Positions 3,919-47,054 of a stretch of DNA of 48,954 bases are shown here, in pieces. The translations under genes and the position numbers were made by a program. Under the pieces are notes generated by a model. That model saw nothing but the letters and a program-made list of their open reading frames with translations, ran no database searches and was not told the origin of the DNA. This DNA comes from an uncultured Candidatus Saccharibacteria bacterium (lineage in GTDB: Bacteria > Patescibacteriota > Doudnabacteria > UBA920), in the NCBI GenBank assembly GCA_964592725.1, contig CAZQFQ010000003.1, forward strand, positions 1 to 48,954, read 5' to 3'. Within the stretch, counting starts at the first letter, position 1; every line of letters begins with the position of its first letter.

Positions 3919-5148
3919 ATGCTGACAAGAGATTTATTTGAAGAAACTTACTGGGCGCTTTCCGCCAACAAAGTCAGGAGCTTTCTGACGATTTTGGGTA
4001 TTGTCATAGGCGTCGGCTCAGTCGTAGCTATGATAGCCGTTGGCCAGGGCTCCCAGGCCAGCATTCAATCCAGCATCCAGGCCTCGGGAGCCAACCTGCT
4101 GACCGTTATTCCGGGCGCGGCGGCGGGGGTGGGAGTGCAAGTCAGCGCCGGCCGCGGCAGCGCGCAAACCCTGACCCAAGATGACGCCGCGGCCATTTCA
4201 CAGCAAGTTTCCCTCATAAAAGCAATTTCGCCGGAATTTACCAAGCGCTCCCAAGTTACGGCCAAAGGAACCAATACCAACACTTCAGTAATCGGAGCGG
4301 AACCCGCTTACATGACCGTGCATAACGTAGCAATTGACCTGGGCGCCTTTATTACCGACCAACAGCAGTCTACCGCCGCGCGCGTAGCCGTACTTGGCCC
4401 GACGGCGCGCGACGACCTGTTTGGTACGGGAGCCAATGCTGTAGGAAGTACTATTGTTATCAACAGTCAGGAATTTAAAGTCATTGGCGTGACCGTGTCC
4501 AAAGGAGGCACCGGCTTTAACAACCCCGACGATTATATCTATGTTCCGTTATCGACCATGGAGCACTTTTTGGCCGGCGACACCACCGGTTATTTAAGCT
4601 CCATAGCCGTAAGCGTTTCCAACCAGTCCGCCATGAATGAAGTCCAAAACCAAATTACCTCGTTACTTTTAGCCAGGCACAAAATTTCCGACCCGACGCA
4701 AGCGGACTTTAGTATTGTTAACCAGGCCGATATTGTGGCCAGCGCTTCCACAGTCACCAATACTTTTACCGTGCTTTTGGCCTCGGTTGCGGGAATATCA
4801 TTATTAGTCGGGGGCATCGGCATTATGAATATGATGCTTACCACCGTAACCGAACGCACCCGCGAAATCGGTTTGCGCAAGGCCATCGGCGCGCACAAAA
4901 CCGACATCACCAAACAATTTTTGGCGGAAGCCATTATGCTGACATTGCTTGGCGGCATTATCGGAGTAATTTTAGGGTGGCTGATGTCCCTAGCGGTGAC
5001 TTATTTTGCCAACATTGCCACCCAAATTTCCGGTTCTTCCATTATTTTAGCTTTTGGCGTTTCGGCCGGCATCGGCATAATTTTTGGATACTACCCGGCC
5101 CGCCGCGCCGCGGGGCTAAGCCCGATTGAGGCTTTAAGGTACGAGTAA
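3919..5148 (+). CDS. ABC transporter permease, MacB/FtsX-like fold
   Basis: 409 aa with an N-terminal TM helix, a large extracytoplasmic domain and three C-terminal TM helices. Conserved TERTREIGLRKAIGA motif. Confidence 0.9.
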   Translation: MLTRDLFEETYWALSANKVRSFLTILGIVIGVGSVVAMIAVGQGSQASIQSSIQASGANLLTVIPGAAAGVGVQVSAGRGSAQTLTQDDAAAISQQVSLIKAISPEFTKRSQVTAKGTNTNTSVIGAEPAYMTVHNVAIDLGAFITDQQQSTAARVAVLGPTARDDLFGTGANAVGSTIVINSQEFKVIGVTVSKGGTGFNNPDDYIYVPLSTMEHFLAGDTTGYLSSIAVSVSNQSAMNEVQNQITSLLLARHKISDPTQADFSIVNQADIVASASTVTNTFTVLLASVAGISLLVGGIGIMNMMLTTVTERTREIGLRKAIGAHKTDITKQFLAEAIMLTLLGGIIGVILGWLMSLAVTYFANIATQISGSSIILAFGVSAGIGIIFGYYPARRAAGLSPIEALRYE

Positions 5149-5238
5149 AAAAATCGAATTTACGAATTCGTAGGCCTTCGTAGATTCGTCTAATTCGTTG
5201 ATTCGATTTCTTTATAAAATAATTAACTAAGGACAAAT

Positions 5239-5709: not shown

Positions 5710-5723
5710 ATGATATAATAATA

Positions 5724-5885
5724 AGAACCTATTTTAAAAATAATTTGTAGGCGAAATTACAGGATTTTGAGCGGATTGGCCCTTAACAAATTTTGACGTT
5801 TAGCCGAAGCTAAGCGGAAAAATTTTTAAGGCCAAGACGCCAAAATCCTGGAATTGCAGCCCGAAGGATTTTTAAAATAGGTTCT
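5724..5885 (+). mobile_element. MITE-like full-length palindromic element, copy 1
   Basis: 18-bp perfect termini (AGAACCTATTTTAAAAAT / ATTTTTAAAATAGGTTCT). The conserved core GGATTTTGAGCGGATTGGCCCTTAACAAATTTTGACGTTTAGCCGAAGCTAAGCGGAAAAATTTTTAAGGCCAAGACGCCAAAATCC recurs at 13641-13804 and 14419-14580. Confidence 0.75.
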
Positions 5886-5903
5886 AAGCTAAACTCGACA
5901 AAA

Positions 5904-9601: not shown

Positions 9602-10882
9602 TTAAGTGCCCTCTTGCCAACTCGCCAAATACTTTTTTTGCGCTGGGGTTAATACATCAATTTTTACCCCAAGCGCCGCCAACTTTAATCGCGACACTTT
9701 TTGGTCTATTTCTTTGGGCACTTCGTAAACCTTATTTTCCAATTGCCGATGATGTTTAACCAGCCACTCGCAGGTCAGCGCCTGGTCCGCAAAAGACATA
9801 TCCATAACCGCCGACGGGTGCCCTTCGGCCGCGCCCAAATTCATCAATCTTCCTTCGGCGATTAAATACAGTTTACGTCCGTCCTTCATCGTAAATTCTT
9901 CCAGAGAATTCCTGACCTGCCTTTTGCCTTTTGCCTCTTTTGCTAATTGCTCCCCATTAATCTCCACATTAAAGTGCCCGCTGTTGCCCAAAATCGCGCC
10001 GTCCTTCATCAGTTCAAAATGCGCCGCTGTTAAAACGTCTTTATCGCCGGTAGCCGTTAAAAATATATCGCCGATTTTTGCGGCCTGCGCCATTGGCATA
10101 ACACCAAAACCGTCCATAGCCGCCTGCAACGCCGGCAGGGGATCCACCTCGGTAACGATTACCCTCGCACCCAAACCTTTAGCGCGCAAAGCTATACCCT
10201 TGCCGCAATACCCGTATCCGGCCACAACCAAAATTTTTCCGGCCAACAAAATATTGGTGGCGCGCAACAAGCCGTCCATTGTCGACTGTCCGGTGCCGTA
10301 GTAATTGTCAAACATATGCTTAGTCGGGGTATCGTTTACGGCCACAACCGGATATTTTAAGGCGCCGTCTTTGGCCATGGCTTTTAATCTGATAACTCCG
10401 GTGGTGGTCTCTTCCTGGCCGGCCCAAACGGTTTTTAACAGCTCTTTGCGCCCGGAATGGATAAGCGAAATTACGTCGGCGCCGTCGTCTATGGTAATTT
10501 GCGGTTTGAAATCTAAAACCTGATTCAGTGCCCAATAATAATCTTTATTGGAAATATGCTTCCAGGCAAACACGTTAATGCCGCTCTCGGCCAAAGCCGC
10601 GGCAACGTCGTCCTGCGTAGACAGGGGATTGCTGCCGCACAAAGCCACTTTCGCCCCGCCGGCTTTTAAGGCGTGCATCAGCACCGCGGTTTCTTTGGTT
10701 ACGTGGAGGCACGCGGCAATTGTTATGCCTTCAAATGGTCGGCGCTTTTTTCCGCCGGAGGCGGGTCCGCCTTTGGCGGAAAAATCTTTGGCGATAATCC
10801 GCAAAACCGGCATTTCCCGTTCGGCTAAAGCGATATTTATATGCCCTTGTTTAGCAAGCTTGATGTCTTTTACTTTGTGCAT
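9602..10882 (-). CDS. ahcY: adenosylhomocysteinase
   Basis: 426 aa with family-typical blocks: ITIDDGAD, EETTTG, AVNDTPTKHMFDNYYGTGQS, NAD-binding VAGYGYCGKG, GHFNVEI. Contains a repeat-derived insert, SAKGGPASGGKKR. Confidence 0.95.
   Translation of the reverse strand: MHKVKDIKLAKQGHINIALAEREMPVLRIIAKDFSAKGGPASGGKKRRPFEGITIAACLHVTKETAVLMHALKAGGAKVALCGSNPLSTQDDVAAALAESGINVFAWKHISNKDYYWALNQVLDFKPQITIDDGADVISLIHSGRKELLKTVWAGQEETTTGVIRLKAMAKDGALKYPVVAVNDTPTKHMFDNYYGTGQSTMDGLLRATNILLAGKILVVAGYGYCGKGIALRAKGLGARVIVTEVDPLPALQAAMDGFGVMPMAQAAKIGDIFLTATGDKDVLTAAHFELMKDGAILGNSGHFNVEINGEQLAKEAKGKRQVRNSLEEFTMKDGRKLYLIAEGRLMNLGAAEGHPSAVMDMSFADQALTCEWLVKHHRQLENKVYEVPKEIDQKVSRLKLAALGVKIDVLTPAQKKYLASWQEGT
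10746..10784. repeat. TTTTCCGCC..GGCGGAAAA double-hairpin repeat inserted in frame in ahcY
   Basis: TTTTTTCCGCCGGAGGCGGGTCCGCCTTTGGCGGAAAAA. Other copies at 27291-27325, 30698-30734 and 47804-47838. Confidence 0.75.
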
Positions 10883-13082: not shown

Positions 13083-13158
13083 GCCAGCGTAGCTCAGTTG
13101 GCAGAGCAGCTGTTTTGTAAACAGCAGGTCATCGGTTCAAATCCGATCGCTGGCTCCA
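13083..13158 (+). tRNA. tRNA-Thr (UGU), CCA encoded
   Basis: Acceptor GCCAGCG/CGCTGGC, D arm GCTC-AGTTGGCA-GAGC, anticodon loop TTTGTAA, T arm ATCGG-TTCAAAT-CCGAT. Confidence 0.9.
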
Positions 13159-13190
13159 CAAGAAGCTTCGGCGGGCAAGGCAACGGTTTT

Positions 13191-13275
13191 GCCGAAGGTC
13201 CGACGTAGTCCCGACTAGTCGGGACGAAGTTGGATAAACCGTAGGTCGTCGGTTCAAACCCGACCATCGGCTCCA
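13191..13275 (+). pseudogene. tRNA-like remnant (intact T arm and acceptor 3' strand, non-canonical body)
   Basis: GTCGTCGGTTCAAACCCGACCATCGGCTCCA is a good T arm plus acceptor end that can pair with GCCGAAG at 13191. The interior is an 18-nt perfect palindrome (GTCCCGACTAGTCGGGAC) and does not fold as D or anticodon arms. Confidence 0.4.
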
Positions 13276-13458
13276 GATTTAACGGGGTGAAAATCCGACA
13301 GCTGGCTCCACATTTTGCGCAACAAAATGTGCCCGACGAAGCCTTGGCGAAGCCGGGCTTTAAACGTCATTGATGGATCGATGGCGTTAACAGATTTTCC
13401 TGACGCCCAGGACAATCACAATTCATAACTCCTAATTCTTAATTCATAATTCCATCAT

Positions 13459-13614: not shown

Positions 13615-13640
13615 GTTAATATAACTGATAATTTATAATT

Positions 13641-13804
13641 AGAAGCTATCTCAAAATTAGCTTTTGAGGAAAAATTGAGGAATTTTGAGCGGATTGGCCT
13701 TTAACAAATTTTGACGTTTAGCCGGAGCTAAGCGGAAAAATTTTTAAGGACAAGACGCCAAAATTACTCGATTTTAACCAAAATGGAATTTTGAGATAGC
13801 TTCT
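13641..13804 (+). mobile_element. MITE-like palindromic element, copy 2 (diverged arms, conserved core)
   Basis: Termini AGAAGCTATCTCAAAATT / AATTTTGAGATAGCTTCT are perfectly complementary. The core is about 90% identical to copy 1. Confidence 0.75.
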
Positions 13805-13878
13805 AATAACAAATAACTAAGACGCGCGTTATTAGTTATTATCGTTATTAGTTATTATTATGGTTATCAGTTATCCCT

Positions 13879-22154: not shown

Positions 22155-23006
22155 ATGCCGATCAAATTCAAAACCCTTTTTCTCTCCCTGCTCCTGGTTG
22201 AACTCCTTTTTGCCTATGCTCCGGCCTTTGCCCAAAGCCCGTCGCCGGATTACAGCAAAGCCGGGGTATCCACGCAAATTGAAACCTATCTCTGCAATCC
22301 CACCGATACGACCGGGGGGATCCTGTATAAATGCATTAACCAAATTTACAAATTTGCCATAGTGGTGGCCAGCGTTATGGGCGTGTTCTTTATTGTCATT
22401 GCCGGCTATGTTTATATGTCGGCCGAGGGCAACAGCGAATCCACAACCAAAGCCAAGGACATCTTAGTTAGCACCATCACCGCTTTGGTCATCCTGTTTG
22501 GCGGCTACGCCTTGCTCAACACCATCAACCCCGACCTGGTCCAATTCCACGGCAATACCTTACAGCCGGTGAATATTGCGGCGCCGGCAGTAACAACGGG
22601 AATTACTACGCCTTTAGCAGGTTACAATATTGGTGCATATGATGCCGGTGAGCCCCAACAAGCCGTTGCCGTAACCTCCATATATAATAGACTTTTGGCA
22701 TTAAATCTGTCTACGGCAGATCAAATGACGCAGTATATGAATAGCTCAGCCCAAGGTATCGGAAAAAGCGGGAGTCCAATTACCGGGCAAATGGTTCTAA
22801 GTGCCTCTTCTGCCACAAATGTTGACCCTAAAATGGTTATGGCGATTATGGAAGAAGAAAGCCATTATGGAAGCGATGGGGCAAGCACCGCAGTTGCTAA
22901 TTTTAACCCGGGAAATATACAATCAGGAAATTCTGACATAAATTACGGTAATTGGCAGGCGGGAGTAAATGCGGTAGCTAATTGGCTTAATGGCCATAGG
23001 GCTTGA
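22155..23006 (+). CDS. TrbC/VirB2-type pilin-like N-terminal module fused to a GH73/lysozyme-like C-terminal domain
   Basis: Signal peptide, Cys pair, two TM helices (FAIVVASVMGVFFIVIAGYVYM; TALVILFGGYALL) and NPDLV. The C-terminus VDPKMVMAIMEEESHYG..NFNPGNI..NYGNWQAGVNAVANWL fits a glucosaminidase-type muramidase pattern. Confidence 0.55.
   Translation: MPIKFKTLFLSLLLVELLFAYAPAFAQSPSPDYSKAGVSTQIETYLCNPTDTTGGILYKCINQIYKFAIVVASVMGVFFIVIAGYVYMSAEGNSESTTKAKDILVSTITALVILFGGYALLNTINPDLVQFHGNTLQPVNIAAPAVTTGITTPLAGYNIGAYDAGEPQQAVAVTSIYNRLLALNLSTADQMTQYMNSSAQGIGKSGSPITGQMVLSASSATNVDPKMVMAIMEEESHYGSDGASTAVANFNPGNIQSGNSDINYGNWQAGVNAVANWLNGHRA
22167..22597 (+). repeat. 431-bp exact direct repeat, copy 1 (5' module of the pilin-like genes)
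   Basis: Base-for-base identical to 23438-23868 by direct comparison of the printed sequence. Confidence 0.9.
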
Positions 23007-23425: not shown

Positions 23426-24301
23426 ATGCCCCAAACCTTCAAAACCCTTTTTCTCTCCCTGCTCCTGGTTGAACTCCTTTTTGCCTATGCTCCGGCCTTT
23501 GCCCAAAGCCCGTCGCCGGATTACAGCAAAGCCGGGGTATCCACGCAAATTGAAACCTATCTCTGCAATCCCACCGATACGACCGGGGGGATCCTGTATA
23601 AATGCATTAACCAAATTTACAAATTTGCCATAGTGGTGGCCAGCGTTATGGGCGTGTTCTTTATTGTCATTGCCGGCTATGTTTATATGTCGGCCGAGGG
23701 CAACAGCGAATCCACAACCAAAGCCAAGGACATCTTAGTTAGCACCATCACCGCTTTGGTCATCCTGTTTGGCGGCTACGCCTTGCTCAACACCATCAAC
23801 CCCGACCTGGTCCAATTCCACGGCAATACCTTACAGCCGGTGAATATTGCGGCGCCGGCAGTAACAACAGTAACTCCGGTCACAACCGCATGCAACCAAA
23901 CTTTTGGAGGTAGCGCATCTGTGGGATGTAGCGGATCAAGCTGCGTGAATGTATCATCTTATACTTCTAGCCATGACTGCAGTAGTAATGGGGGAGTATG
24001 TCTGCTTTCCCAGCAAGCCGCTCAAAAAGCCCAAAATCTCATCAATAATTTTAACCAAGCGGGGGCCGGTTGTACTTTAAAAATATCAGCAGCAATTGAA
24101 AGCGCCACAGGACCCAGTATTTCTTCTTGTCATAGTAACGGAACTTGCGCTGATTTTAACCTAATACCCTACAATTCCACCTGTGCACAGGCATTTTATA
24201 ATGCGGCTCAAGCCGCTGGCGCAGTTTCACTTTTGGATGAATATGTCCCAGCTTGCGTAGCCGGCTCGACCACAGGGGGAAATATCCACGTAAATTTTTA
24301 A
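23426..24301 (+). CDS. TrbC/VirB2-type pilin-like N-terminal module fused to a Cys-rich LAS/M15-like (D-Ala-D-Ala peptidase fold) C-terminal domain
   Basis: The N-terminal 148 aa are identical to 22155-23006 from residue 5 onward. The C-terminus has SSCHSNGTCADFNL (SxHxxGxAxD) and a terminal GGNIHVNF, consistent with a zinc peptidase of the LAS/M15 type. Confidence 0.5.
   Translation: MPQTFKTLFLSLLLVELLFAYAPAFAQSPSPDYSKAGVSTQIETYLCNPTDTTGGILYKCINQIYKFAIVVASVMGVFFIVIAGYVYMSAEGNSESTTKAKDILVSTITALVILFGGYALLNTINPDLVQFHGNTLQPVNIAAPAVTTVTPVTTACNQTFGGSASVGCSGSSCVNVSSYTSSHDCSSNGGVCLLSQQAAQKAQNLINNFNQAGAGCTLKISAAIESATGPSISSCHSNGTCADFNLIPYNSTCAQAFYNAAQAAGAVSLLDEYVPACVAGSTTGGNIHVNF
23438..23868 (+). 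repeat. 431-bp exact direct repeat, copy 2
   Basis: Identical to 22167-22597. Confidence 0.9.
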
Positions 24302-24661: not shown

Positions 24662-25999
24662 CTAGAAGCTTTTCGATTTCCTTAGTTGGACAATGATTGC
24701 GGGCAAAACTTTTAATACGTAGTCTAAATCCGCTTTGGTCGTTGTTTTGCCCATACTGATCCTTATACTGCTTTTGGCTTCCTTTTTTGACTTACCAATA
24801 GCTAATAGGACATGAGAAGCGTCGCTACTGCCGGTACTGCAGGCACTGCCTGTGGAAACTGCTATGCCATAGCTGTCTAAATATAACATTAGCGCTTCAC
24901 CCTCAACGCCTTTAATAGCAATATTGATGTTATTCGGCAATCTATACGAGGCCGAGGGTAACCCTCGGCTGGAGGGTTGCTTTTGTCCGAGGGTTACCCT
25001 CGGGTCGGGACCATTTAACGTCACCCCATCAATTTCCATCAGTTTTTCTATAAAATACCTCTGCAATTTCCCAATTTCCCAATTTCCCAATTTCTTTTCA
25101 TTTTCTGCAATCTCCAAAGCTTTGGCCAGTCCGACAATCCCCGGAACATTTTCTGTGCCGCTTCTTAAACCCCGCTCCTGCCCGCCGCCGTAAACCAGGG
25201 GCTTTAAATTCACCCCGCTCCTAACATATAAAAAGCCTGTCTGTTTTGGACCATAAATTTTACTCCCGTTTACGGACATTAAATCAACACCCAAACGATT
25301 AACGTTGATATCAAGATACCCTGCGGCTTGACAAGCATCGGTATGCAATACTATCCGTGTTAATCCTTTCCGTTCCCTATCCGTGTTTATCTGTCTCACC
25401 CACTTCCCTATTTTGGCAACAGGTTCTATTGTGCCGATTTCATTATTGGCCAACATTACTGAAATCAAAATTGTTTCGGGTTTGATAGCGGATTTGAGTT
25501 GATCGATTTTTATAAAACCACCTGTCTCAACCCCTATCAAACTTGTCTTATACCCCTCCCCTTCCAGCGCCTTAAAAGAATTTAACACGCAGTGGTGTTC
25601 TATGGCTGAAGTTATAAGATGCGGCGATCCGTGTTTATTCGTTTTAGAATCCGTGTTCATCCGTACCGTACCAAATATTGCAAGATTAACGCTCTCCGTT
25701 CCGCCGGCCGTAAAAATAATTTCCGATGGTTTGGCCCCAATAATATCGGCTATCTTTTTTCTGGATTCTTCAACTGCTTTTTTTGCCTCAATCCCCTGCT
25801 TATACAAACTGGATGGATTGCCAAAAGAACTGCTCCAAAAAGGAGTCATTGCTTTTAAAACCCGCGGATCAACCGGCGTGGACGCCGCGTGGTCCAAATA
25901 AATTAATTTTTTTTGAGGCTTAATTTTTGGTAACATAAAAGTTAAATGAAAGCCGCCGGATAAAATAACCGGCGGCAAAAGAAGGATAGTGTCCACCAA
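24662..25999 (-). CDS. iscS: cysteine desulfurase, IscS/NifS type (class V aminotransferase)
   Basis: YLDHAAST, HTDACQA, SVNGSKIYGPK (PLP Lys) and STGSACSTGS (catalytic Cys loop). The likely true start is MLPKIKPQ at 25936. The CDS carries four repeat-like in-frame inserts. Confidence 0.85.
   Translation of the reverse strand: MVDTILLLPPVILSGGFHLTFMLPKIKPQKKLIYLDHAASTPVDPRVLKAMTPFWSSSFGNPSSLYKQGIEAKKAVEESRKKIADIIGAKPSEIIFTAGGTESVNLAIFGTVRMNTDSKTNKHGSPHLITSAIEHHCVLNSFKALEGEGYKTSLIGVETGGFIKIDQLKSAIKPETILISVMLANNEIGTIEPVAKIGKWVRQINTDRERKGLTRIVLHTDACQAAGYLDINVNRLGVDLMSVNGSKIYGPKQTGFLYVRSGVNLKPLVYGGGQERGLRSGTENVPGIVGLAKALEIAENEKKLGNWEIGKLQRYFIEKLMEIDGVTLNGPDPRVTLGQKQPSSRGLPSASYRLPNNINIAIKGVEGEALMLYLDSYGIAVSTGSACSTGSSDASHVLLAIGKSKKEAKSSIRISMGKTTTKADLDYVLKVLPAIIVQLRKSKSF
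24950..25014. repeat. CCGAGGGT(T/A)ACCCTCGG twin-palindrome element inserted in frame in iscS
   Basis: CCGAGGGTAACCCTCGG, 18-nt spacer, CCGAGGGTTACCCTCGG. Encodes ..PRVTLGQKQPSSRGLPSA.. Same design as 46599-46662 and 47055-47118. Confidence 0.75.
25064..25095. repeat. 8-bp tandem repeat (CAATTTCC x3 plus one imperfect unit) inside iscS
   Basis: Read directly from the sequence. Encodes LGNWEIGKL on the minus strand. Confidence 0.85.
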
Positions 26000-26876: not shown

Positions 26877-28253
26877 ATGAAATACGCCTTTATTTTAGGG
26901 AGGGTTTATACTTTATCGGTCGCCGAACTTTTGGCTGTTTTGGAAAAAACAGATGCCTCTTTAAATTTAACCGGAGAGCCTGTCAAAATTTTGGAAGCTT
27001 CGGAAGAAGTTTTGATAGTGGAAACTAGCAAACCCCTTAACGCGGAGCGTCTGCAAAAAAAACTGGGCGGAGTAATAAAAATTTTGGAAGTTGTTGATAT
27101 TATAAAAAAACGCGAGCAGGATTCGGTTAACTTTGCCCTAAAGCATTATTTTAAACCGGGAATTTTAAAAAATAAATTCTTTAAAGATTACAAAGGCAAA
27201 GTGCAATTCGGTTTGAGCATTTATGTTTTGGATATGGATTTGCTCAAGCGGCCTCAACCGAATTTCAGAGATAAAGATCGGGGGCAATCTTTTTCCGCCG
27301 GAGGCGGATCGTCCCTTGGCGGAAACTCCATCTTTAGTGAACCAAAGCGCATCGGAATGATGATAAAAAACGGGCTCACCGAAAGCGGCGCGAGCGCAAG
27401 ACTGGTTTTGCCGGAATACAATTCCCTATCTTTGGCTTCCGTAGTCGTTACCAAAAATTTATTGTTGCAAAAAGGCGCGGAAATTTGCATTCTGGCGGCC
27501 AAAGATAACATTTTTACCGCCAAGACTTTAACCGTGCAGGATTTTGAAGACTACGGCAGAAGGGATTACCAACGTCCTGCCCGCAACGAAAAACAGGGAA
27601 TGATTCCGCCGAAAGTGGCGCAAATTATGCTTAACCTTTCGGGTTGTAAATCCGGTAACGGAATTTTGGATCCGTTTTGCGGCATCGGCACAATCATTCA
27701 GGAAGGTTTACTGCTCGGCTTCCGGATGATTGGCAGTGATATTAATAAAATCGCGATAAAGGGTTCGGAGCAAAATTTGGAATGGTTCCGCAACCGCTAC
27801 AAAATCGCCCCGGGGAAATACGGCGTAGAAGTTTCCGACGCGGCAAAAGTCGCCGATCTAATTGAAAAATCTAAAAGCCAAATAGCCGCCATTGTTACCG
27901 AAGGCACACTTGGACCGATTTACGGCCAATACCCCAAAGCCGATGAAATTGCCAAAAATTTTAAAGACCTGGAAAAACTTTACAAAGCCAGTTTTAAAGA
28001 GTTTGCCAAATTCCTGCCAAAACAAGCCAGAATTGTTATGTGTATTCCGGCTTACAGAAAAAACCGCGACCAATACGAAATGTTCCCCTCTCTTGACTTC
28101 GCGACCGAGTTAGGATATAATTTAGTGGATATTATTTCTCCGACCGTAACTAAAAAGCTTAAATTCCTTAAGCTCACAGCCAGAAACACGGCAATTTACG
28201 ATCGAAAGGATCAGGTAGTCGCGAGGGAGATAGTTGTTTTTCAAAAAAATTAA
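26877..28253 (+). CDS. putative SAM-dependent RNA methyltransferase (Trm11/UPF0020-like)
   Basis: C-terminal Rossmann motif I, ILDPFCGIGTIIQEG, and GSDIN. The motif IV position reads TEGTLGP rather than DPPYG. Contains the repeat-derived insert SFSAGGGSSLGGN. Confidence 0.5.
   Translation: MKYAFILGRVYTLSVAELLAVLEKTDASLNLTGEPVKILEASEEVLIVETSKPLNAERLQKKLGGVIKILEVVDIIKKREQDSVNFALKHYFKPGILKNKFFKDYKGKVQFGLSIYVLDMDLLKRPQPNFRDKDRGQSFSAGGGSSLGGNSIFSEPKRIGMMIKNGLTESGASARLVLPEYNSLSLASVVVTKNLLLQKGAEICILAAKDNIFTAKTLTVQDFEDYGRRDYQRPARNEKQGMIPPKVAQIMLNLSGCKSGNGILDPFCGIGTIIQEGLLLGFRMIGSDINKIAIKGSEQNLEWFRNRYKIAPGKYGVEVSDAAKVADLIEKSKSQIAAIVTEGTLGPIYGQYPKADEIAKNFKDLEKLYKASFKEFAKFLPKQARIVMCIPAYRKNRDQYEMFPSLDFATELGYNLVDIISPTVTKKLKFLKLTARNTAIYDRKDQVVAREIVVFQKN
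27291..27325. repeat. TTTTCCGCC..GGCGGAAA double-hairpin repeat inserted in frame in the methyltransferase gene
   Basis: TTTTCCGCCGGAGGCGGATCGTCCCTTGGCGGAAA. Confidence 0.75.
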
Positions 28254-28988: not shown

Positions 28989-30686
28989 TTATTTCTTTAA
29001 TTTCACCACAGCTTTCATAAACCCGGCAAATAGCGGATGCGGGGAAAGCGGGCGGGATTGGAATTCCGGGTGGAATTGGGAGCCCACAAAGAATGGGTGA
29101 TTTTTTAGCTCGACGATTTCAACAAGTTTGCCGTCCGGAGTTGTTCCGGATATTATAAGGCCGGCTTTTTCCAGGCGCTCGCGATAGGCGTTGTTAAATT
29201 CATAACGGTGGCGGTGGCGTTCGTTAATCTTAGCCTTGCCGGTTTTACCGATTAGTTTAGCTTCGAGATAGCATTTTTCCGTCAGCGTGCCGCGAGTTAT
29301 AACGCAATCCCAGCCTCCCAATCTCATTGTGGCACCGTATTCGCGGTTTAGGAGCTTCTTTTCCTGGTCAGGCATAATGTGGATAACCGGGTGCGGGGTA
29401 TCGTCGTCAACTTCGGTTGTATTGGCCGATTTTAATCCTGCCACGTGGCGGGCAAATTCAATAGTGGCCATTTGCATACCGTAGCACAAACCCAAATATG
29501 GAATGTTATTTTCCCGCGCGTATTCAATAGTTTGAATCATACCTTCAGTTCCTCTTGTGCCAAAGCCGCCAGGCACCACAATCCCGTCAAATTTTTCCAA
29601 AACTTTTTTAGCTCCTTGCTTTTCCACGTCTATGCTGGAAATCCAGTGCAAATTCGCCTTGACGCCGTTATGCCAGGAACCGTGTTTGATGGCCTCCACG
29701 ACGGATATATAAACGTCGGCAAGTTTGTAGGCGCCGGTTTCGTAATATTTTCCCACGACCGCGATGTTAACTTCTTTTTTCGAAGAGTTAATTCGCGTAA
29801 TATTGCCGACAAGCTTTTTCCACTCTTTAAAATCGTTTTTTCTCGGCCTCATACCGAATTCTTCCAAAATTTTGTCCGTCAAATGCTGTTGTTCAAAATT
29901 CATCGGCACTTTATATATGCTGTCCACATTCGGCGCCGCTATAATGTGCTGGACCGGCACGCTGGTGACCCACGCCAAAGTTTCCTTGCGGCGGTCGTCA
30001 ATGGGTTTTTCCGCGCGGCAAATTAAAAAGTCGGGCTGGATGCCGCTGCCGTTTAAAATCCTGACTGAAGTCTGAACGGGCTTGGATTTCATTTCACCGA
30101 CGCTCGGCGGAGTCGGCAAATAACCGACGTGGACATGAATGACATCCCGCCCATCGCGATACTTCATAATGCGGTTGGCTTCCATATACAAAACGTTTTG
30201 ATACTCCCCTACCGTGCCCCCGATTTCCACAATCACAAAATCCGCCTTGCGCTCCTGTGCCGCCTTTTCAAACCGCGCGATAATGGCTTCCGGAACATGC
30301 GGCACAATTTCCACGTCTTCGCCGTCGTATTCAAAATTGCGTTCTTTTTGGATGATGCTCTGGTAAATTTGGCCGTTGGTTACGTAGTTGGAAGATGACA
30401 AATCGGTGTTAATAAAGCGCTCATAATTGCCCAGGTCCTGGTCGGTTTCCACACCGTCCTTGGTTACAAACACTTCGCCGTGCTCCTGCGGACGGATGGT
30501 TCCGGCATCCACGTTTAAATACATATCGCACTTTACCGGCGCCACGCTGTATCCGCGGCTTTCAAGCAACGCGGCAATGGACGCTGTGGTAACTCCTTTA
30601 CCGACCGACGATATAACGCCTCCGGAAACAAAAATAAACTTGGTGTCTAACTTTTTGGCCTTGCGGGCTTTGATGTGATAGGACAT
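28989..30686 (-). CDS. pyrG: CTP synthase
   Basis: 565 aa: KFIFVSGGVISSVGKG, a synthase domain and a GATase domain with LGLCYGMQ (Cys nucleophile) and HRHRYE. Confidence 0.97.
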   Translation of the reverse strand: MSYHIKARKAKKLDTKFIFVSGGVISSVGKGVTTASIAALLESRGYSVAPVKCDMYLNVDAGTIRPQEHGEVFVTKDGVETDQDLGNYERFINTDLSSSNYVTNGQIYQSIIQKERNFEYDGEDVEIVPHVPEAIIARFEKAAQERKADFVIVEIGGTVGEYQNVLYMEANRIMKYRDGRDVIHVHVGYLPTPPSVGEMKSKPVQTSVRILNGSGIQPDFLICRAEKPIDDRRKETLAWVTSVPVQHIIAAPNVDSIYKVPMNFEQQHLTDKILEEFGMRPRKNDFKEWKKLVGNITRINSSKKEVNIAVVGKYYETGAYKLADVYISVVEAIKHGSWHNGVKANLHWISSIDVEKQGAKKVLEKFDGIVVPGGFGTRGTEGMIQTIEYARENNIPYLGLCYGMQMATIEFARHVAGLKSANTTEVDDDTPHPVIHIMPDQEKKLLNREYGATMRLGGWDCVITRGTLTEKCYLEAKLIGKTGKAKINERHRHRYEFNNAYRERLEKAGLIISGTTPDGKLVEIVELKNHPFFVGSQFHPEFQSRPLSPHPLFAGFMKAVVKLKK

Positions 30687-30697
30687 AGGATTGATTA

Positions 30698-30734
30698 TTT
30701 TCCACCGAAGGTGGATCCGCCTCTGGCGGAAAAG
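30698..30734. repeat. TTTTCCACC..GGCGGAAAA double-hairpin repeat (intergenic copy)
   Basis: TTTTCCACCGAAGGTGGATCCGCCTCTGGCGGAAAAG. Confidence 0.7.
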
Positions 30735-36583: not shown

Positions 36584-37063
36584 TCACTTTTTCTTTTGGT
36601 ATACGGCAAAAGCAAATTTAAAATTTCTTTCTTCCTGGATTTTATCCCACTGGCTCCAATCGATTTTTACAAAATATGCGTCGCCCGGATAATTGCCGTG
36701 GATATGGGTCATATACATTTTTTCGGCATAAGGCAAAGCGAGCTTAAAAATCTGCTCGCCGCCGATAATATATAAATCTTCATTTTTCAAAGCTTCAAAA
36801 GCCTGCTCCAGGCTGCCGAACACCAACACTCCCTGGGGCACTTTATAGTCGGCCTGCCTTGTAATAACCACATTTTTCCGCCCCGGCAGGGGCTTGCCCA
36901 GGCGCTTGACTATGGAATCGTAGGTCTTTCTGCCCATGACCACAGTCTTGCCCAAAGTGATTTCCTTAAACCGCTTGAGGTCTTCGGGAAAATACCAGGG
37001 CAGTTCATTGTCGCTGCCGATAACCAAATTGTCCGCCACTGCCACCGGGCCAAGAATAATCAT
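36584..37063 (-). CDS. folA: dihydrofolate reductase
   Basis: VIGSDNELPWYFPEDLKRFKEITLGKTVVMGRKTYDSI, LYIIGGEQIF. ATGA overlap with the upstream gene. Confidence 0.92.
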   Translation of the reverse strand: MIILGPVAVADNLVIGSDNELPWYFPEDLKRFKEITLGKTVVMGRKTYDSIVKRLGKPLPGRKNVVITRQADYKVPQGVLVFGSLEQAFEALKNEDLYIIGGEQIFKLALPYAEKMYMTHIHGNYPGDAYFVKIDWSQWDKIQEERNFKFAFAVYQKKK

Positions 37064-37443
37064 AAATATTGTTTCAAAAAAATTAAGATATCGCCAACTG
37101 ACGCATAGCGTATGATTTTAAAATTTGGATCTTGTATGCCCAGAATCATACGGGTAACTTTGGCGTCTTTTTGAGCTACTGCCAAAACTTTTTTTCCTAA
37201 ATTTAATCCCGTCGCGATTTCAAATCCCAAACCGGTGGAAGGATATGAGACTTCCGCCAAAAGCAGATCGCAATTTTTTACGCAACCAATGTCATGCCTA
37301 AAAACGGCCTCGGCATTACCATTAATCAAACCCAAATATTCTGAAACTTCGTGATCTTGGCTTAATTTTGACCTAAGCTTTGCCATTTCCGATTTGTATT
37401 CTTCGGGGGCATGGGTTAGGGAGTTTGCCAGATATATTTTCAT
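37060..37443 (-). CDS. nucleoside 2-deoxyribosyltransferase / Rcl(DNPH1)-like protein
   Basis: 127 aa from MKIYLANSL... The ATG at 37443 overlaps the tmk stop as ATGA. ..CDLLLAEVSYPSTGLGFEIATGLNLGKKV fits the family core. The longer ORF-track call (to 37542) overlaps tmk and was not used. Confidence 0.5.
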   Translation of the reverse strand: MKIYLANSLTHAPEEYKSEMAKLRSKLSQDHEVSEYLGLINGNAEAVFRHDIGCVKNCDLLLAEVSYPSTGLGFEIATGLNLGKKVLAVAQKDAKVTRMILGIQDPNFKIIRYASVGDILIFLKQYL

Positions 37444-38186
37444 GTTCTTGGCTTTATATCTTTTAAAGCTATCCTCCTGACCAGCTCCCAGACTTTGTTG
37501 TGGATTTGTTCGGGGGACATCAGCTCCTTGCCGGCCATGCATTCCACCAGTTTGGTGTTGGGGAAAAGTTTGGCGATTTGCAAGTAAACTTTTTCCGCGT
37601 TTTTTAAATGATTGAGGTCGGCCTCATGCAGGTCGCGCTTTTTACCGTTGGCGTATTTTCTTTCATCAGCCGATTTTAAATCCACCAATTTCTGCGCCAC
37701 TTCCGCCGGCACGTGCAAAATGATATTTAAGTCGGGTTTGGGGATGCCAAAAATGTTGTATTCAAGATTGTCCAGCCATTTAAAAAACTTCAGCCGGTCC
37801 AAATCATCGGCAATTTTGCCTCCCTGGTGTCCGGCGTTGGCCGTAACATAGCGATTGGAAATTACGATTTTCCCTTCGTTTAGCCAATTGCGGATTTTAA
37901 AGCTGGCGTCAAACCTGTCAATCGCGTAAAAGATAGACGCGGCTTCGGGTCCAACCTGCCCGTATTTTCCGTTTAAATATTCTTCAATAAGCCCCGCGGA
38001 TTTTGTGCCGTACTGCGGAAAGTCCGTCATCTCCAAAGGATATCCGTTCTTTTTTAACTCTTCTACAAGCAATTTAGTTTGTGTGGCCTTGCCAGTGCCG
38101 TCAGTGCCGTCAATAACTATAAACCTGCCTTTTTGGGGGGAAGATTTGAATTTTTTACTTTTACCAAAGGATAATTTGTTGAGCAT
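37440..38186 (-). CDS. tmk: thymidylate kinase
   Basis: P-loop FIVIDGTDGTGKATQ, a DRF-type motif (AIDRFD) and a lid region. Confidence 0.9.
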   Translation of the reverse strand: MLNKLSFGKSKKFKSSPQKGRFIVIDGTDGTGKATQTKLLVEELKKNGYPLEMTDFPQYGTKSAGLIEEYLNGKYGQVGPEAASIFYAIDRFDASFKIRNWLNEGKIVISNRYVTANAGHQGGKIADDLDRLKFFKWLDNLEYNIFGIPKPDLNIILHVPAEVAQKLVDLKSADERKYANGKKRDLHEADLNHLKNAEKVYLQIAKLFPNTKLVECMAGKELMSPEQIHNKVWELVRRIALKDIKPRT

Positions 38187-38192
38187 ATAAAA

Positions 38193-38975
38193 CTAACCCC
38201 GTTCCTTTTGGGCTTTATTAATGGCGGCTAACTGTTCAATTTCGAATTTTACTATTTCATAGGCCTTATGTTTTCTATAATCAGTTTCATAATGTGCTTC
38301 AAGAATTTGACCCTTGAAATCCATTTGGACATCTCTGTTTAATCGGCCACTCAGCTCTGTAAACAATTTCTGTTCATATTTGTCTGTCACCTGGCCATCA
38401 ACAAATTCAACTTTTTTGGATTCGACTTGGCCCATAATTTCAGCCCTGCGCGAACCCACTATAAAATCCGGAGACGGGACATACAACCCGGGTTTTAGAA
38501 CAACCTTATCTGCAAAATTTGTTTGATTAATGCCATAAGCCAATACAATACCGTTCGCGTTGGCCCACCATCTTAAATTCCTTTCCGCATAGTCTAAGCC
38601 CGAATAGCCGGAATGATATTTTAACCTGGCTTCAGTTGGAACCCACCAATCCACCCCTCCCTCAAAGGGTTGCTCCGAAATAAATTTTTCGTCGGTGACC
38701 ATAACGTCCACGTCTTTATGTGCGTCCAAATCAGCAATAGTATTACGCGGTTTCCATATTGCTTCCGCAACTCCACCGATTAACAATCCAACTGATTTTC
38801 TTTGTTTTAATAATTCGTCCGCTATTTTCATTCCTTGCAAGCCACGGACGGCATTAGGAAATTCACCATGGCGCAATTCCTGCCTAAAAGACAATAAAGT
38901 CTCCAGCGCCAATTTCTGTTTATGGTTAAACTTTTGTTCCAGCCTGTTTTGCTGTCGAAACTCAAATCCCGGCAT
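38193..38975 (-). CDS. hypothetical protein, possible minimal nucleotidyltransferase fold
   Basis: 260 aa. GLLIGGVAEAIW...HKDVDVMV resembles the G[SG]...DxD signature of pol-beta-type NTases. Embedded in the nucleotide operon. Confidence 0.3.
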   Translation of the reverse strand: MPGFEFRQQNRLEQKFNHKQKLALETLLSFRQELRHGEFPNAVRGLQGMKIADELLKQRKSVGLLIGGVAEAIWKPRNTIADLDAHKDVDVMVTDEKFISEQPFEGGVDWWVPTEARLKYHSGYSGLDYAERNLRWWANANGIVLAYGINQTNFADKVVLKPGLYVPSPDFIVGSRRAEIMGQVESKKVEFVDGQVTDKYEQKLFTELSGRLNRDVQMDFKGQILEAHYETDYRKHKAYEIVKFEIEQLAAINKAQKERG

Positions 38976-38976
38976 T

Positions 38977-39528
38977 TTAATTTTGTAGTTTACTTATAAT
39001 TTCATCCACTTTCTTATAAAGCTCCCCTAAACTTCCCGTGTTATCTATTCTAAAATCCGCCTGCTTGCCCAGTTCGGGAATTTCCAGTTCGGTGCGGCAG
39101 GTTTCGTGCTCTTTAAAATGCTCAAAATCCATTTGCGCGTCATCGGTTTTGCCGCTTTTTCCCCCGCGCCGGTTTTTATAGCGCTCAAATCGCGTCTCAA
39201 TCGGCGCCGTAATATAAATAATTTTTGCTCCCCAGGATTTTACAATGTCCAGCTCGTCCATTCGAATGCCGTTAACCACTCTATAGCCGGCCATAGAGCG
39301 TTTTACTCTTGGCTCCAAAGCGTTAATTAAGACGTGCTCGCCAAAAACTTCGCGAAGCCCCAGACCTAAGTCTATTTCATTTTTTCTGGAAATTTCCAAA
39401 TTCAATTCTTCTAAAATCGCGTCTAAAATGTGGCTAAAACGAAAATGCGAGGCGTTATATTTTTCCGCCATATAATCGGCTACCGTGTCTTTTCCCGCAA
39501 GTTTTTCTCCAACCAGACCTATTATCAT
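38977..39528 (-). CDS. P-loop kinase, phage-type dNMP kinase-like
   Basis: MIIGLVGEKLAGKDTVADYM.. (GxxGxxxAGKDT P-loop). 183 aa, 1 nt upstream of the next gene. Confidence 0.5.
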   Translation of the reverse strand: MIIGLVGEKLAGKDTVADYMAEKYNASHFRFSHILDAILEELNLEISRKNEIDLGLGLREVFGEHVLINALEPRVKRSMAGYRVVNGIRMDELDIVKSWGAKIIYITAPIETRFERYKNRRGGKSGKTDDAQMDFEHFKEHETCRTELEIPELGKQADFRIDNTGSLGELYKKVDEIISKLQN

Positions 39529-39593
39529 ATGTTAAACAATAAATTTCTACCAATTTCCTAATTTCGTGAGGCCGCAGGCCGAACAAATATCCA

Positions 39594-40034
39594 TTAATTC
39601 TGATATCCACCGGTGCTCCCAATCCCCCCACGATCGACATCGCGCAAACTGTCCGCCTCTTCCCACCGCGCCTGCTCGGTTCCGATGAATACGCCCTGCG
39701 CCAGACGCTCACCTTTTTTAACTTCTACGGGGCGGGAAGTAAAATTATGGACAATTATATGGACTTCATCATTAGGTCCGGCATAGTCCGGATCCACGAC
39801 TCCAATGCCGTTGGCCATTGCCAAACCTTTTTTTAGCGGCAGGCTGCTGCGAGCCGCTATGAGTAAAAAATGGCCTTTAGGGGCGGCAATTACCAATCCT
39901 GTGGGTATTTTTGCCACTTCACCCGGAGCTATGGTTATATCGATTGATGAAGCAATGTCAAAGCCGGCCGATTCGGAGGTGTGATATTTGGGAAGCTCAA
40001 CGTCTTTGGTTAATCGCTTAATTTTGGCTTTCAT
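39594..40034 (-). CDS. dut: dUTP diphosphatase (trimeric dUTPase)
   Basis: All five motifs: AGFDI, ARSS, GVVDPDYAGP, RLAQ, RGGIGSTG. Confidence 0.92.
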   Translation of the reverse strand: MKAKIKRLTKDVELPKYHTSESAGFDIASSIDITIAPGEVAKIPTGLVIAAPKGHFLLIAARSSLPLKKGLAMANGIGVVDPDYAGPNDEVHIIVHNFTSRPVEVKKGERLAQGVFIGTEQARWEEADSLRDVDRGGIGSTGGYQN

Positions 40035-40047
40035 AGGTATATCTCAC

Positions 40048-40148
40048 GGGCGTCATCCTGAGGAAGTGCATCCGACCGAAGGATCTCTTTACCGATTTGA
40101 GATCCTTCGCCCGCTTAGTTTTGCCGATGACGGGCTCAGGATGACGCC
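40048..40148. repeat. GTCATCCTGAG...CGAAGGATCTC palindromic element
   Basis: GGGCGTCATCCTGAGGAAGTGCATCCGACCGAAGGATCTC..GAGATCCTTCG..CTCAGGATGACGCC. Supplies the last codons of 40136-40696. Confidence 0.75.
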
Positions 40149-41181: not shown

Positions 41182-41187
41182 CTACTA

Positions 41188-41853: not shown

Positions 41854-41874
41854 AACTTTGTAATTTTAATAATA

Positions 41875-46567: not shown

Positions 46568-46598
46568 ACGTTTTTATGATGGTAGACTGCTGCCACTT

Positions 46599-46993: not shown

Positions 46994-47054
46994 AAGATTG
47001 CGATATTTATATTTTCTTTACTGCAAAAAGTCCAATTTCGCCGCGGTTTCTCTC

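Follow-up and report, generated by a model that had tools for sequence, protein, structure and literature searches.

The 30-nt DNA palindrome described here likely represents (with a probability of about 0.8) a family of selfish, mobile DNA palindromes that are ultra-small and non-autonomous. It inserts exactly at T-T(-T)↓A-A (the arrow marks the point of insertion), without duplication of the target, and within genes copies survive only in the codon phase and orientation encoding S-A-[K/E/Q/R/G]-G-G-S-A-[S>F]-G-G, the translation itself being inferred from selection. The DNA analysed, hereafter the window, is 48,954 nt long and comes from a bacterium of the candidate phyla radiation. An earlier note, made from the sequence alone, had likened a repeat of this window to the RPEs of Rickettsia; this reading was supported by orthologue alignment, by a loop model and by a census. 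The element is not confined to this genome: it is spread, almost letter for letter, over many uncultivated phyla.

The 30-nt unit and its copies in the window

The earlier note had claimed four copies of a ~37-nt element. The number of copies held: a repeat search located 4/4 as one repeat family (10747-10782, 27290-27325, 30697-30732 and 47803-47838), and the earlier consensus gave 3 window matches at ≤3 mismatches vs 0.00 expected (100 shuffles). A search of the window with ≤8 mismatches added no copy to these four. The length was corrected to 30 nt, or 10 aa, and the inserted peptides to those listed in Table 1; the F, K/KKR, S and N residues on either side belong to the native proteins. 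The proposed gene identities (AhcY, an RNA methyltransferase and pyrG) held, as did the claim that both coding copies are frame-preserving, Gly/Ser-rich inserts.

Table 1. Positions of the element copies and of the associated features in the window
Feature	Position	Strand	Description
Copy 1, 30-nt core TCCGCCGGAGGCGGGTCCGCCTTTGGCGGA	10751-10780		In-frame inside ahcY; 1 mismatch; peptide SAKGGPASGG on the minus strand
Copy 1 flank, T-run	10746-10750		
Copy 1 flank, A-run	10781-10784		
Host gene 1, adenosylhomocysteinase (AhcY)	9602-10882	-	426 aa
Copy 2, core TCCGCCGGAGGCGGATCGTCCCTTGGCGGA	27294-27323		In-frame; 2 stem mismatches; peptide SAGGGSSLGG
Host gene 2, UPF0020/Trm11-like methyltransferase	26877-28253	+	458 aa
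Copy 3, core TCCACCGAAGGTGGATCCGCCTCTGGCGGA	30701-30730		Intergenic; upstream of pyrG, 14 nt from its start codon
pyrG (CTP synthase)	28989-30686	-	Directly downstream of copy 3
Copy 4, decayed, TCCGCCAGCGGCGGATCTGCCTCCGGCATGA	47807-47837		Nested in another repeat; 4 mismatches and 1 extra nt
AT-rich palindromic repeat hosting copy 4	47741-47870		Terminal inverted repeats TCTACTAAATACTAAA / TTTAGTATTTAGTAGA
Uninterrupted paralogue of the AT-rich repeat	45156-45256		Serves as the empty site of copy 4

With a length of exactly 30 nt, (TCCGCC-nnn-GGCGGA)x2, the mobile unit is made of a pair of hairpins placed back to back; in each of them a 3-nt loop closes a 6-bp stem (TCCGCC/GGCGGA), and the halves form an inverted pair around a central GGA|TCC. 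The loops fall into the classes NRA and TYN. Both stems are constant across phyla, and so are the final base of loop 1 and the first one of loop 2; the remaining loop bases drift. For perfect copies one long hairpin is the energetic optimum, and this was considered as the conserved structure and ruled out, as the loops do not covary (15/123 were complementary, which is the chance level) and the compensatory changes are local. In decayed copies compensatory pairs fell within a local stem in 16/36 cases, vs 1 for the long-hairpin pairing, and the same was observed in 8/13 copies with two mismatches. Because these changes occur within each 6-bp stem, and not across the long hairpin, the element is a true double hairpin. 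In copy 3 the two mismatches, G>A and C>T in hairpin 1, compensate each other. Most copies in the genome of the window are in decay.

In 1.75 Mb of loci only dimers were found, with no trimers. A monomer form was rejected, the few single hairpins being mostly halves of decayed dimers. A scan of the whole window at the Rfam gathering threshold returned three tRNAs only, and around the intergenic copy a permissive scan yielded no more than a chance match to a snoRNA (E = 0.89); since neither scan matched the element, it is not a described RNA family.

Insertion sites and coding copies

Empty and filled sites were compared in three cases (AhcY, the methyltransferase and the nested copy), and target-site duplication was absent from all three. 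At AhcY site A the empty locus (L122) reads GAT TTT↓AAA AAA, the site is filled in the window and in locus L121, and the difference is exactly 30 nt. Similarly, the methyltransferase site is empty in locus L247 (TCT TTT↓AAC TCC) and filled in the window, again with an exact 30-nt difference, and a relative (L248) carries a perfect copy at the same site. In both genes the insertion is clean at TTT↓AA and adds 10 aa. The same relative has a perfect copy in the pyrG intergenic region, but 33 nt from the start codon. When copy 4 was compared with the uninterrupted paralogue, a clean 31-nt extra block was observed between ..GTATTT and AG.ACC.., so that the earlier proposal that this nested copy is an insertion held, whereas a replacement of 4 nt of its host repeat need not be assumed.

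In a flank-unbiased set, T was present in 59%, 84% and 62% of the copies at positions -3, -2 and -1, with A mirrored on the 3′ side. Because an exact 30-nt block enters at T-T(-T)↓A-A without duplicating the target, the flanks extend the palindrome. Elsewhere, insertions into heptamer arrays and hairpin centres were plain TT↓AA interruptions. The 3-nt direct repeats that apparently flank some intergenic copies were rejected as target-site duplications, as they are heptamer tandem arrays broken at TT↓AA. No partial or extended junction was seen among the copies examined, and neither a transposition intermediate nor a same-population polymorphism was directly observed in the sequences examined.

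The orthologues of the two host proteins confirmed that the extra segments are lineage-specific. Most AhcY orthologues have 416-417 aa, vs 426 aa in the window, and in the closest ones (85-88% identity) DF is followed directly by KK (DF↓KK); likewise, those nearest to the methyltransferase (88-89% identity) have SF↓NS and are insert-free. In the methyltransferase it is a variable linker, upstream of the methylase domain, that contains the insert. The expectation that the inserts map to loops held for AhcY: the AlphaFold model predicts the insert between helix 25-35 and strand 54-59, with a pLDDT <50 for residues 38-43 and high confidence for most of the surrounding fold, and the alignment with a solved SAHH structure has a 10-residue gap exactly at the insert. 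AhcY has been invaded at three sites, in phylogenetically scattered lineages with empty sisters. The shared AhcY insert has 9/10 third positions identical, vs 61% outside, although with p = 0.055 this is suggestive only. The earlier reading would have been refuted if distant orthologues carried the peptide without the palindrome; this was not the case, as the distant orthologues with the peptide also have the perfect nucleotide palindrome.

Among 246 perfect copies, 138 (56%) were inside long ORFs and 44% outside. Phase 0 was used by 124 of the 138 ORF copies, vs ~50-54% of the candidate TT↓AA sites (p about 1e-19), and these phase-0 copies encode S-A-x-G-G-S-A-x-G-G; DFSAKGGSASGGK is an example of an expected junction peptide. 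Furthermore, the sense strand is the one that reads K..S, E..S or Q..S, and the antisense reading would give R..F, G..F or stops (Fisher p = 1.5e-12). It is because of this phase bias and this orientation bias that we infer that the insert is translated and selected, an inference that rests on selection signatures and not on proteomics. The hosts are housekeeping enzymes (MurB, PGI, UvrC, KsgA, an IleS-like protein, a GTPase and XerC/D-like proteins). Repeated independent insertion was seen beyond AhcY as well: UvrC was hit at four sites, and a RecG-like helicase, class-I aminoacyl-tRNA synthetases and T9SS C-terminal domains at three sites each.

Distribution and the search for a mobilising enzyme

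Exact-pattern scans of public genomes and of metagenomes returned at least 120 rows each. These scans accepted exact matches only, and their counts are lower bounds that give neither per-genome copy numbers nor the true taxonomic limits. A set of 120 genome matches comprises 75 Patescibacteria, 36 members of other named phyla and 9 unclassified genomes; the non-Patescibacteria phyla are at least ten named ones, including Omnitrophota, Ignavibacteria and Planctomycetota, and the GC content of the hosts ranges from 28% to 72%. From this spread between phyla horizontal transfer is inferred. Stem-variant subfamilies, such as CCACC/GGTGG or CCTCC/GGAGG, also exist. A second outcome that would have told against the earlier reading, namely only these copies and no insertion polymorphism, was not met, since the census showed hundreds of copies with plentiful presence/absence polymorphism. 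The density was 4 copies per 49 kb in the window and ~20 per Mb of flanking DNA elsewhere. All host sequences are metagenome assemblies, and the element was found in independent assemblies of many studies, Illumina as well as long-read; among them are contigs of 0.9-1.6 Mb and a closed chromosome. Closed or near-closed carriers are ENA ERZ25039512 contig_17402 (949 kb), CAWINB01 (868 and 700 kb), CP070837.1 (Omnitrophota) and CAWIAG01 (Ignavibacteriales), and the source metagenomes include Hainich groundwater and the Microflora Danica long reads.

No match was obtained in plasmids (72,556) or in E. coli genomes (5,426). A phage vector was rejected on the basis of no match in cultured phages and 1 match in 2.9 million viral contigs. 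In the open-access literature no description was found of the nucleotide or peptide strings, or of in-frame palindromes or MITEs in Patescibacteria, the only matches to the element strings being cloning primers and unrelated peptides; a description elsewhere is not excluded.

No transposase was found in the window, and an all-against-all BLASTP comparison of 2,484 ORFs from 241 loci revealed no recurrent neighbour gene family. Y1_Tnp genes were present in 6 of ~240 element loci, vs ~2 expected at one gene per genome, and in locus L246 such a gene directly adjoins the copy-carrying AhcY gene. The element, however, flanks none of the seven Y1_Tnp genes examined (those six and that of L246). In L246 the gene lies between inverted copies of a 19-nt palindrome with a different sequence, AATGGGGACATGACCCATT, and a further Y1_Tnp gene (L058) is associated with yet another one, CGGGGACTGTCCCCG, so that the Y1_Tnp/RAYT lead offered by the neighbour of AhcY was discarded. 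No full-length element ending in these hairpins was found in 1.75 Mb of loci, a search that was not genome-wide.

Known systems and alternative explanations

The element acts like an RPE but belongs to no described family. RPEs are ~100-150 bp long, form ten families and are confined to Rickettsia (PMC10969869, summarising Ogata et al. 2000). They are the best functional analogue, as they too are selfish palindromes found in-frame in unrelated housekeeping genes, where they encode a fold-compatible peptide, and also in intergenic regions. In contrast, the present element has 30 nt and one consensus, and its hosts are Patescibacteria and members of at least ten further named phyla; a sequence relationship is neither seen nor expected, and selection on phase and orientation is documented for the 30-nt element. 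The best structural analogue is provided by mitochondrial palindromic elements, i.e., the yeast GC42 and other GC clusters and the DHEs of Allomyces (PMC4478555 and references therein). These are also tens of nt long and form GC-rich hairpins in AT-richer DNA, with a sporadic distribution, conserved stems and variable loops; they occasionally occur within coding or rRNA genes and pass from one species to another, and no enzyme is known for them. However, they are organellar and mostly intergenic, and the yeast clusters have short flanking direct repeats, whereas the 30-nt element resides in bacterial chromosomes, shows no duplication or direct repeats, has a TT↓AA target and lies in ORFs in more than half of the cases. 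With IS200/IS605 elements and the derived PATEs/MITEs it shares hairpins at both ends (on the same strand), precise boundaries and an exact, duplication-free insertion next to a short specific target. The known derivatives of this type, though, exceed 100 nt and have asymmetric ends and a one-sided target, as opposed to a 30-nt symmetric palindrome with a symmetric target, and a cognate TnpA was not found near the element loci examined. A classical DDE-derived MITE would share the inverted termini, but the target-site duplication of MITEs is absent.

In the reading that we favour, new copies land anywhere, and within a gene a surviving copy is inferred to be expressed, from transcript to protein, together with its host, where a short, flexible and hydrophilic loop is tolerated between secondary-structure elements; the copies then erode through point mutation and small deletions. 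We infer that the constant stems and the two constant loop bases are recognised by a structure- and sequence-specific machinery on single-stranded hairpin DNA. On weaker grounds, this machinery, whose enzyme has not been identified, is probably provided in trans, for instance by a recombinase of the HUH/Y1 type or by another one that binds hairpins. A single known transposase family does not easily account for a 24-nt stem set that is conserved between phyla, and this speaks against the favoured reading. A bolder version is possible, in which this would be the smallest mobile DNA element yet seen, moved by a mechanism outside the known transposon classes that relies on an unknown enzyme or on a conserved host enzyme common to these phyla. 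The symmetric, duplication-free insertion at TT↓AA might then proceed via a 30-nt single-stranded dumbbell or circle, and the element would cross phyla of uncultivated bacteria and seed new surface loops in hundreds of essential proteins.

The alternative that survives best, although we regard it as unlikely, dispenses with a dedicated enzyme: replication template-switching or microhomology-mediated illegitimate recombination would carry the sequence from an existing copy to any TT↓AA site, with the hairpins stalling the polymerase and the T/A flanks offering 2-3 nt of microhomology, and between phyla short DNA fragments or copy-carrying genes would be taken up. In its favour, the insertion is exact and without duplication, the target flanks match the usual donor flanks (TT..AA), as microhomology copying predicts, and neither the window nor the surroundings of the copies yielded a transposase. 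Quasipalindrome mutagenesis by template-switch correction is known to yield compensatory stem changes, and those observed here are the expected product of such correction. Against it, 2-3 nt of microhomology provides a very weak specificity for hundreds of precise 30-nt insertions with no variant junctions, the model does not account for why only this hairpin is common to phyla of 28-72% GC, and the maintenance of the stems while the loops drift resembles recognition by a protein.

It is also improbable that the element is a miniature REPIN, a non-autonomous partner of RAYT moved by the Y1_Tnp genes that are common in these genomes. REP/REPIN sequences are likewise short imperfect palindromes present in tens to hundreds of copies, the inverted hairpin doublet matches the REPIN architecture, in which doublets are kept as hairpins, and target-site duplication is absent; the slight excess of Y1_Tnp genes at the element loci, and the one beside AhcY in L246, point in the same direction. 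REPs, however, are lineage-specific and lie outside genes, have a conserved 5′ tetranucleotide and border their single-copy RAYT gene, and the 30-nt element shares none of these features: it lacks a GTAG-type tetranucleotide, it occurs in many phyla with 56% of its copies in ORFs, and it flanks 0/7 Y1_Tnp genes, two of which are associated with other palindromes.

A host-useful DNA signal that accumulates by molecular drive is very unlikely; it would be a site bound or recognised by a conserved protein (an uptake tag, or a nucleoid, replication or recombination site), and the frame bias would arise as it does for the uptake sequences of Neisseria and Haemophilus. In its favour, the nucleotide sequence of the stems is the same from phylum to phylum, the hairpins are maintained by compensatory changes, and frame and orientation are biased as in coding uptake sequences. 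USS/DUS uptake sequences in coding DNA are biased in reading frame, and a dependence on DNA uptake is assumed for many of the host lineages. Like the element, the DUS of Neisseria and the USS of Pasteurellaceae are short conserved intragenic motifs located in the less constrained parts of proteins. Yet they originate by substitution and recombination, have an even density of ~1 per kb and a cognate receptor and are family-specific, whereas the copies described here are 30 extra nt, and not existing sequence that converged by mutation; their density is low and irregular, most copies in the genome of the window are decaying, and close relatives lack given copies. Finally, the absence of mobility at the DNA level, i.e., a selected Gly/Ser-rich linker peptide moved by recombination or a sequencing/assembly artefact, is all but excluded as far as sequence data go, for although the peptide looks like a flexible linker and every host sequence is a metagenome assembly, 44% of the perfect copies are outside long ORFs and one is within a non-coding repeat, the nucleotides are identical, including synonymous positions, in unrelated proteins and phyla, reading frames are preserved, and the element is seen in independent assemblies, Illumina as well as long-read.

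With a selfish mobile palindrome as the preferred explanation, the in-frame invasion of essential genes by such sequences, hitherto treated as a curiosity of Rickettsia with mitochondrial parallels, now spans the candidate phyla radiation together with at least ten phyla outside it, and it does so with one 30-nt sequence. The mechanistic puzzle is that something recognises two 6-bp hairpins and inserts them, duplication-free, in hosts of 28-72% GC. The motif accounts for many unexplained 10-aa indels in MAG alignments, and it can mislead homology models and phylogenies. It also amounts to a natural experiment, in which the same 10-residue peptide has been placed in hundreds of folds under measurable selection for phase and orientation, and which bears on the tolerance of proteins to loop insertion and on the origin of new loops. 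More speculatively, the element could be a marker of horizontal DNA flow between the episymbionts of the candidate phyla radiation and their hosts, and, if the bolder reading were true, a tracer of this exchange.

Exact 30-nt insertion at TT↓AA targets

The earlier note had reported four copies of the element, and all four were confirmed in the window sequence and grouped into one family by an unsupervised repeat search. The consensus proposed there gave 3 matches at ≤3 mismatches, compared with 0.00 expected from 100 dinucleotide shuffles of the window, and no further credible copy was found in the window with up to 8 mismatches allowed. The names on AhcY homologues and the synteny with the 949-kb contig of a relative identify the window as a chromosome piece of Candidatus Doudnabacteria (Patescibacteria/candidate phyla radiation). 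Its gene content is housekeeping, and no transposase gene was present among its genes.

Coordinates of the features discussed (window positions unless another locus is named; mismatches counted at the 24 fixed positions of TCCGCCnnnGGCGGATCCGCCnnnGGCGGA)
Feature	Position	Strand	Detail
Element copy 1	10751		1 mismatch; in ahcY
Element copy 2	27294		2 mismatches; in methyltransferase gene
Element copy 3	30701		2 mismatches; upstream of pyrG
Element copy 4	47807		4 mismatches; nested in AT-rich repeat
AT-rich palindromic repeat	45156-45256		intergenic; uninterrupted
AT-rich palindromic repeat	47741-47870		intergenic; hosts copy 4
67-nt family	46596-46662		intergenic
67-nt family	47052-47118		intergenic
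67-nt family	24940-25006		diverged, in frame
NifS-like cysteine desulfurase gene	24662-25999	-	hosts diverged 67-nt copy
MITE-like repeat	5722-5888		intergenic
MITE-like repeat	13640-13806		intergenic
Identical 300-nt stretch	22167-22466		5′ end of T4SS-pilin-like gene
Identical 300-nt stretch	23438-23737		5′ end of T4SS-pilin-like gene
T4SS-pilin-like gene	22155-23006
T4SS-pilin-like gene	23426-24301
tRNA-Thr	13083-13158
Extra tRNA 3′ ends	13134-13312		two
Deoxynucleotide-metabolism run	36584-42717	-	DHFR, nucleoside 2-deoxyribosyltransferase, thymidylate kinase, DNMK-like kinase, dUTPase, dCMP deaminase, dCTP deaminase, ThyA
Heptamer array, locus L014	about 2430-2560
Heptamer array, locus L034	about 5080-5200
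Heptamer array, locus L101	about 4380-4500
Insertion next to AhcY, locus L246	11290-12040		Y1_Tnp (223 aa), serine recombinase (316 aa), 171-aa ORF

AhcY orthologues are mostly 416-417 aa long and read ..DF↓KKR.PF.. at the insertion site, where the orthologue alignment placed SAKGG[PS]ASGG between F and K in the window protein and in a small number of others. In DNA, the empty orthologue of locus L122 reads GAT TTT↓AAA AAA, and the window and a relative (L121) read GAT TTT-(TCC GCC AAA GGC GGA yCC GCC TCy GGC GGA)-AAA AAG. The empty methyltransferase site of locus L247 reads TCT TTT↓AAC TCC; in the window and in the 949-kb relative (L248) 30 nt sit between TTT and AAC/AAT. Copy 4 is a plain extra block in one copy of an AT-rich palindromic repeat of ~100 nt (terminal inverted repeats TCTACTAAATACTAAA / TTTAGTATTTAGTAGA), which is uninterrupted in the paralogue. 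These three comparisons show that the mobile unit is 30 nt (10 codons), that it was inserted without target-site duplication, and that the T-run and A-run around it are part of the target, not of the unit. When the window AhcY was aligned with a solved SAHH structure, a 10-residue gap fell exactly at the insert, which an AlphaFold model (mean pLDDT 83) placed after helix 25-35 and before strand 54-59, with pLDDT <50 at residues 38-43 and mostly high confidence in the surrounding fold.

Among 120 AhcY sequences the element occupied three sites: DF↓KK (proteins P0001, P0002, P0012, P0013 and P0020), PF↓K (P0018), and EYTM↓KDG (P0010, P0058, P0070 and P0101; P0090 keeps a half-deleted remnant there). 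It is carried by scattered lineages whose sister sequences lack it. The earlier note would have been refuted by orthologues with the same peptide but no palindrome; this was not borne out, the DNA of P0018 and P0020 carrying perfect nucleotide palindromes. UvrC was occupied at four sites in four genomes, and three sites each were found in a RecG-like helicase, in class-I synthetases and in the T9SS C-terminal domains of Ignavibacteria. Intergenic copies, which invariably interrupt TT↓AA, often lay within heptamer tandem arrays or in the middle of hairpins that were already there. Exact insertion at this target in many independent events is shown; mobility itself is inferred from sequence patterns.

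The arrays (RAAGATT, ATGGTYR, AAAGGTT) are intergenic, belong to non-CPR MAGs and are broken at TT↓AA, where the element sits. In the orthologue alignments, variable loops of the methyltransferase and AhcY carry further recurrent short inserts, namely SFAKA[TS]EGKP in the methyltransferase (P0127, P0146, P0149, P0159) and LRQGSGPAV (P0099) and RSTGSGQV (P0061/P0092) in AhcY, which might be products of more in-frame repeat families in Doudnabacteria.

Hairpin structure and reading phase of the copies

The anatomy was derived from about 250 copies. The centre was GGATCC in 119 of 120; loop 1 was N-R-A (AGA, AAA, GGA, GAA, CGA, CAA) and loop 2 the mirror class T-Y-N, the two being exact complements in just 15/123 copies, which is the chance rate. 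In a flank-unbiased set, T occupied positions -3, -2 and -1 in 59%, 84% and 62%, with A mirrored on the 3′ side. The element was found solely as a dimer, the few single hairpins being mostly half of a decayed one, and no trimers were seen among the copies examined. The optimal fold of perfect copies is one long hairpin; as an evolutionarily kept structure this was rejected, with just 1 of 36 decayed copies fitting its pairing. Compensatory double changes inside one 6-bp stem occurred in 16 of the 36 distinct decayed copies (TCCACC..GGTGGA, TTCGCC..GGCGAA, TCAGCC..GGCTGA, TCCTCC..GGAGGA, TCCGGC..GCCGGA), and in 8/13 of those with two mismatches compared with a few per cent by chance; window copy 3 carries such a pair. 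The earlier description as a double hairpin thus held, since these changes fall within each stem.

By a stop-to-stop ORF heuristic (≥150 codons in all, of which ≥30 to either side of the element), 138/246 perfect copies lay inside genes, with hosts such as MurB, PGI, UvrC, KsgA, an IleS-like synthetase, an EngB-like GTPase, XerC/D-like recombinases and glycosyltransferases. S-A-x-G-G-S-A-x-G-G (phase 0) was read in 124, PPxADPPxAE in 11 and RxxRIRxxR in 3. With each of the element's three phases open, and with 54% of candidate TT↓AA sites in these ORFs in phase 0 and 45% in phase 2, the larger share of phase 0 among the copies (binomial p about 1e-19) reflects selection. Orientation is also under selection: on the sense strand the coding copies read K..S (42), E..S (14) and Q..S (11), and in antisense they would read R..F (35), G..F (15) and R..L (11), and stop codons would appear in 10 copies (Fisher p = 1.5e-12). 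The insert is inferred, from sequence alone, to be translated as part of the host protein, since removal from the RNA would make phase and orientation irrelevant. Post-insertion decay, hairpin-specific conservation and peptide-level filtering of copies are shown.

Other repeats and genes of the window

In a second palindromic family, the unit is 67 nt long and contains two 17-nt hairpins (CCGAGGGTTACCCTCGG .. CCGAGGGTAACCCTCGG). Its two intergenic copies are 96% alike, and the diverged copy encodes ..DPRVTLGQKQPSSRGLPSASY.. within the cysteine desulfurase, whose L248 orthologue lacks 15 residues exactly at this site, so that this family also colonises ORFs. A MITE-like repeat of ~170 nt (87% identity between copies) has inverted termini of roughly 17 nt, AGAACCTATTTTAAAA .. 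TTTTAAAATAGGTTCT. The adjacent T4SS-pilin-like genes share 300 nt at 100% identity; L248 has just one gene at this place, which points to duplication or gene conversion in the recent past. The extra tRNA 3′ ends (GGTTCAAATCCGA..GGCTCCA) after tRNA-Thr are possibly remnants of integration at the tRNA. The deoxynucleotide-metabolism genes form a compact run.

Spread, machinery and relation to known elements

One-genome-per-species GTDB contigs, scanned for the exact pattern including two flanking T and A bases, and JGI/ENA metagenome contigs, scanned for the exact core-only pattern, gave at least 120 matches each. According to depositors' record titles, Patescibacteria accounted for 75/120 genome matches (at least 15 named candidate lineages) and other phyla for 36, with 9 unclassified. 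The other carriers were Omnitrophota (one closed 1.55-Mb chromosome), Ignavibacteria (contigs up to 1.65 Mb), Planctomycetota, Kiritimatiellia, Lentisphaerae, Verrucomicrobiota, Auribacterota, Nitrospirales, Saganbacteria, Bacteroidota and MAGs labelled Gammaproteobacteria. Host loci ranged from 28% to 72% GC, and horizontal transfer between phyla is inferred. A single match was found in 2.9 million viral contigs, and exact-match scans of cultured phages, 72,556 plasmids and E. coli genomes found none. Rfam held no matching entry, and no description was found in the open-access literature searched.

A trans-acting machinery handling hairpin DNA would recognise the conserved stems and one base of each loop (the last in loop 1, the first in loop 2), the inferred recognition determinants. 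The mobilising machinery was not found, and no gene family recurred beside element copies. A Y1_Tnp gene lies directly downstream of the element-bearing AhcY in one relative (L246), but was rejected as a lead, since inverted copies of another palindrome, 19 nt long (AATGGGGACATGACCCATT), lie on both sides of it; six other Y1_Tnp genes in element loci lay 0.6-3.7 kb from the element and none was flanked by it. Alternatively, the element could spread without an enzyme, by template switching at hairpins via TT/AA microhomology and then quasi-palindrome correction. This route is possible, but it accounts poorly for the sequence specificity and the cross-phylum spread.

The L246 gene (Doudnabacteria MFD04434.bin.1.36) belongs to a three-gene insertion between AhcY and VIT1, and its inverted brackets give this candidate-phyla-radiation genome a RAYT/REP-like arrangement. 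At another locus (L058), a further palindrome, which encodes ILSGTVPDK, occurs twice in frame within a homologous Y1_Tnp ORF.

The element resembles Rickettsia palindromic elements in function (PMC10969869), but differs from their defining size and host range. In structure it is like mitochondrial GC clusters and double-hairpin elements (PMC4478555), without the organelle location and flanking repeats of GC clusters. Its architecture is that of a miniature REPIN (an inverted doublet of REP hairpins), yet it lacks the extragenic location of REPs and, in the loci examined, their linkage to RAYT, the REP-associated Y1 tyrosine transposase, as well as the target-site duplication of classical MITEs. 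The element is set apart by its 30-nt size, by one consensus common to many uncultivated phyla, by duplication-free TT↓AA insertion with the majority of perfect copies in genes, and by clear selection on phase and orientation.
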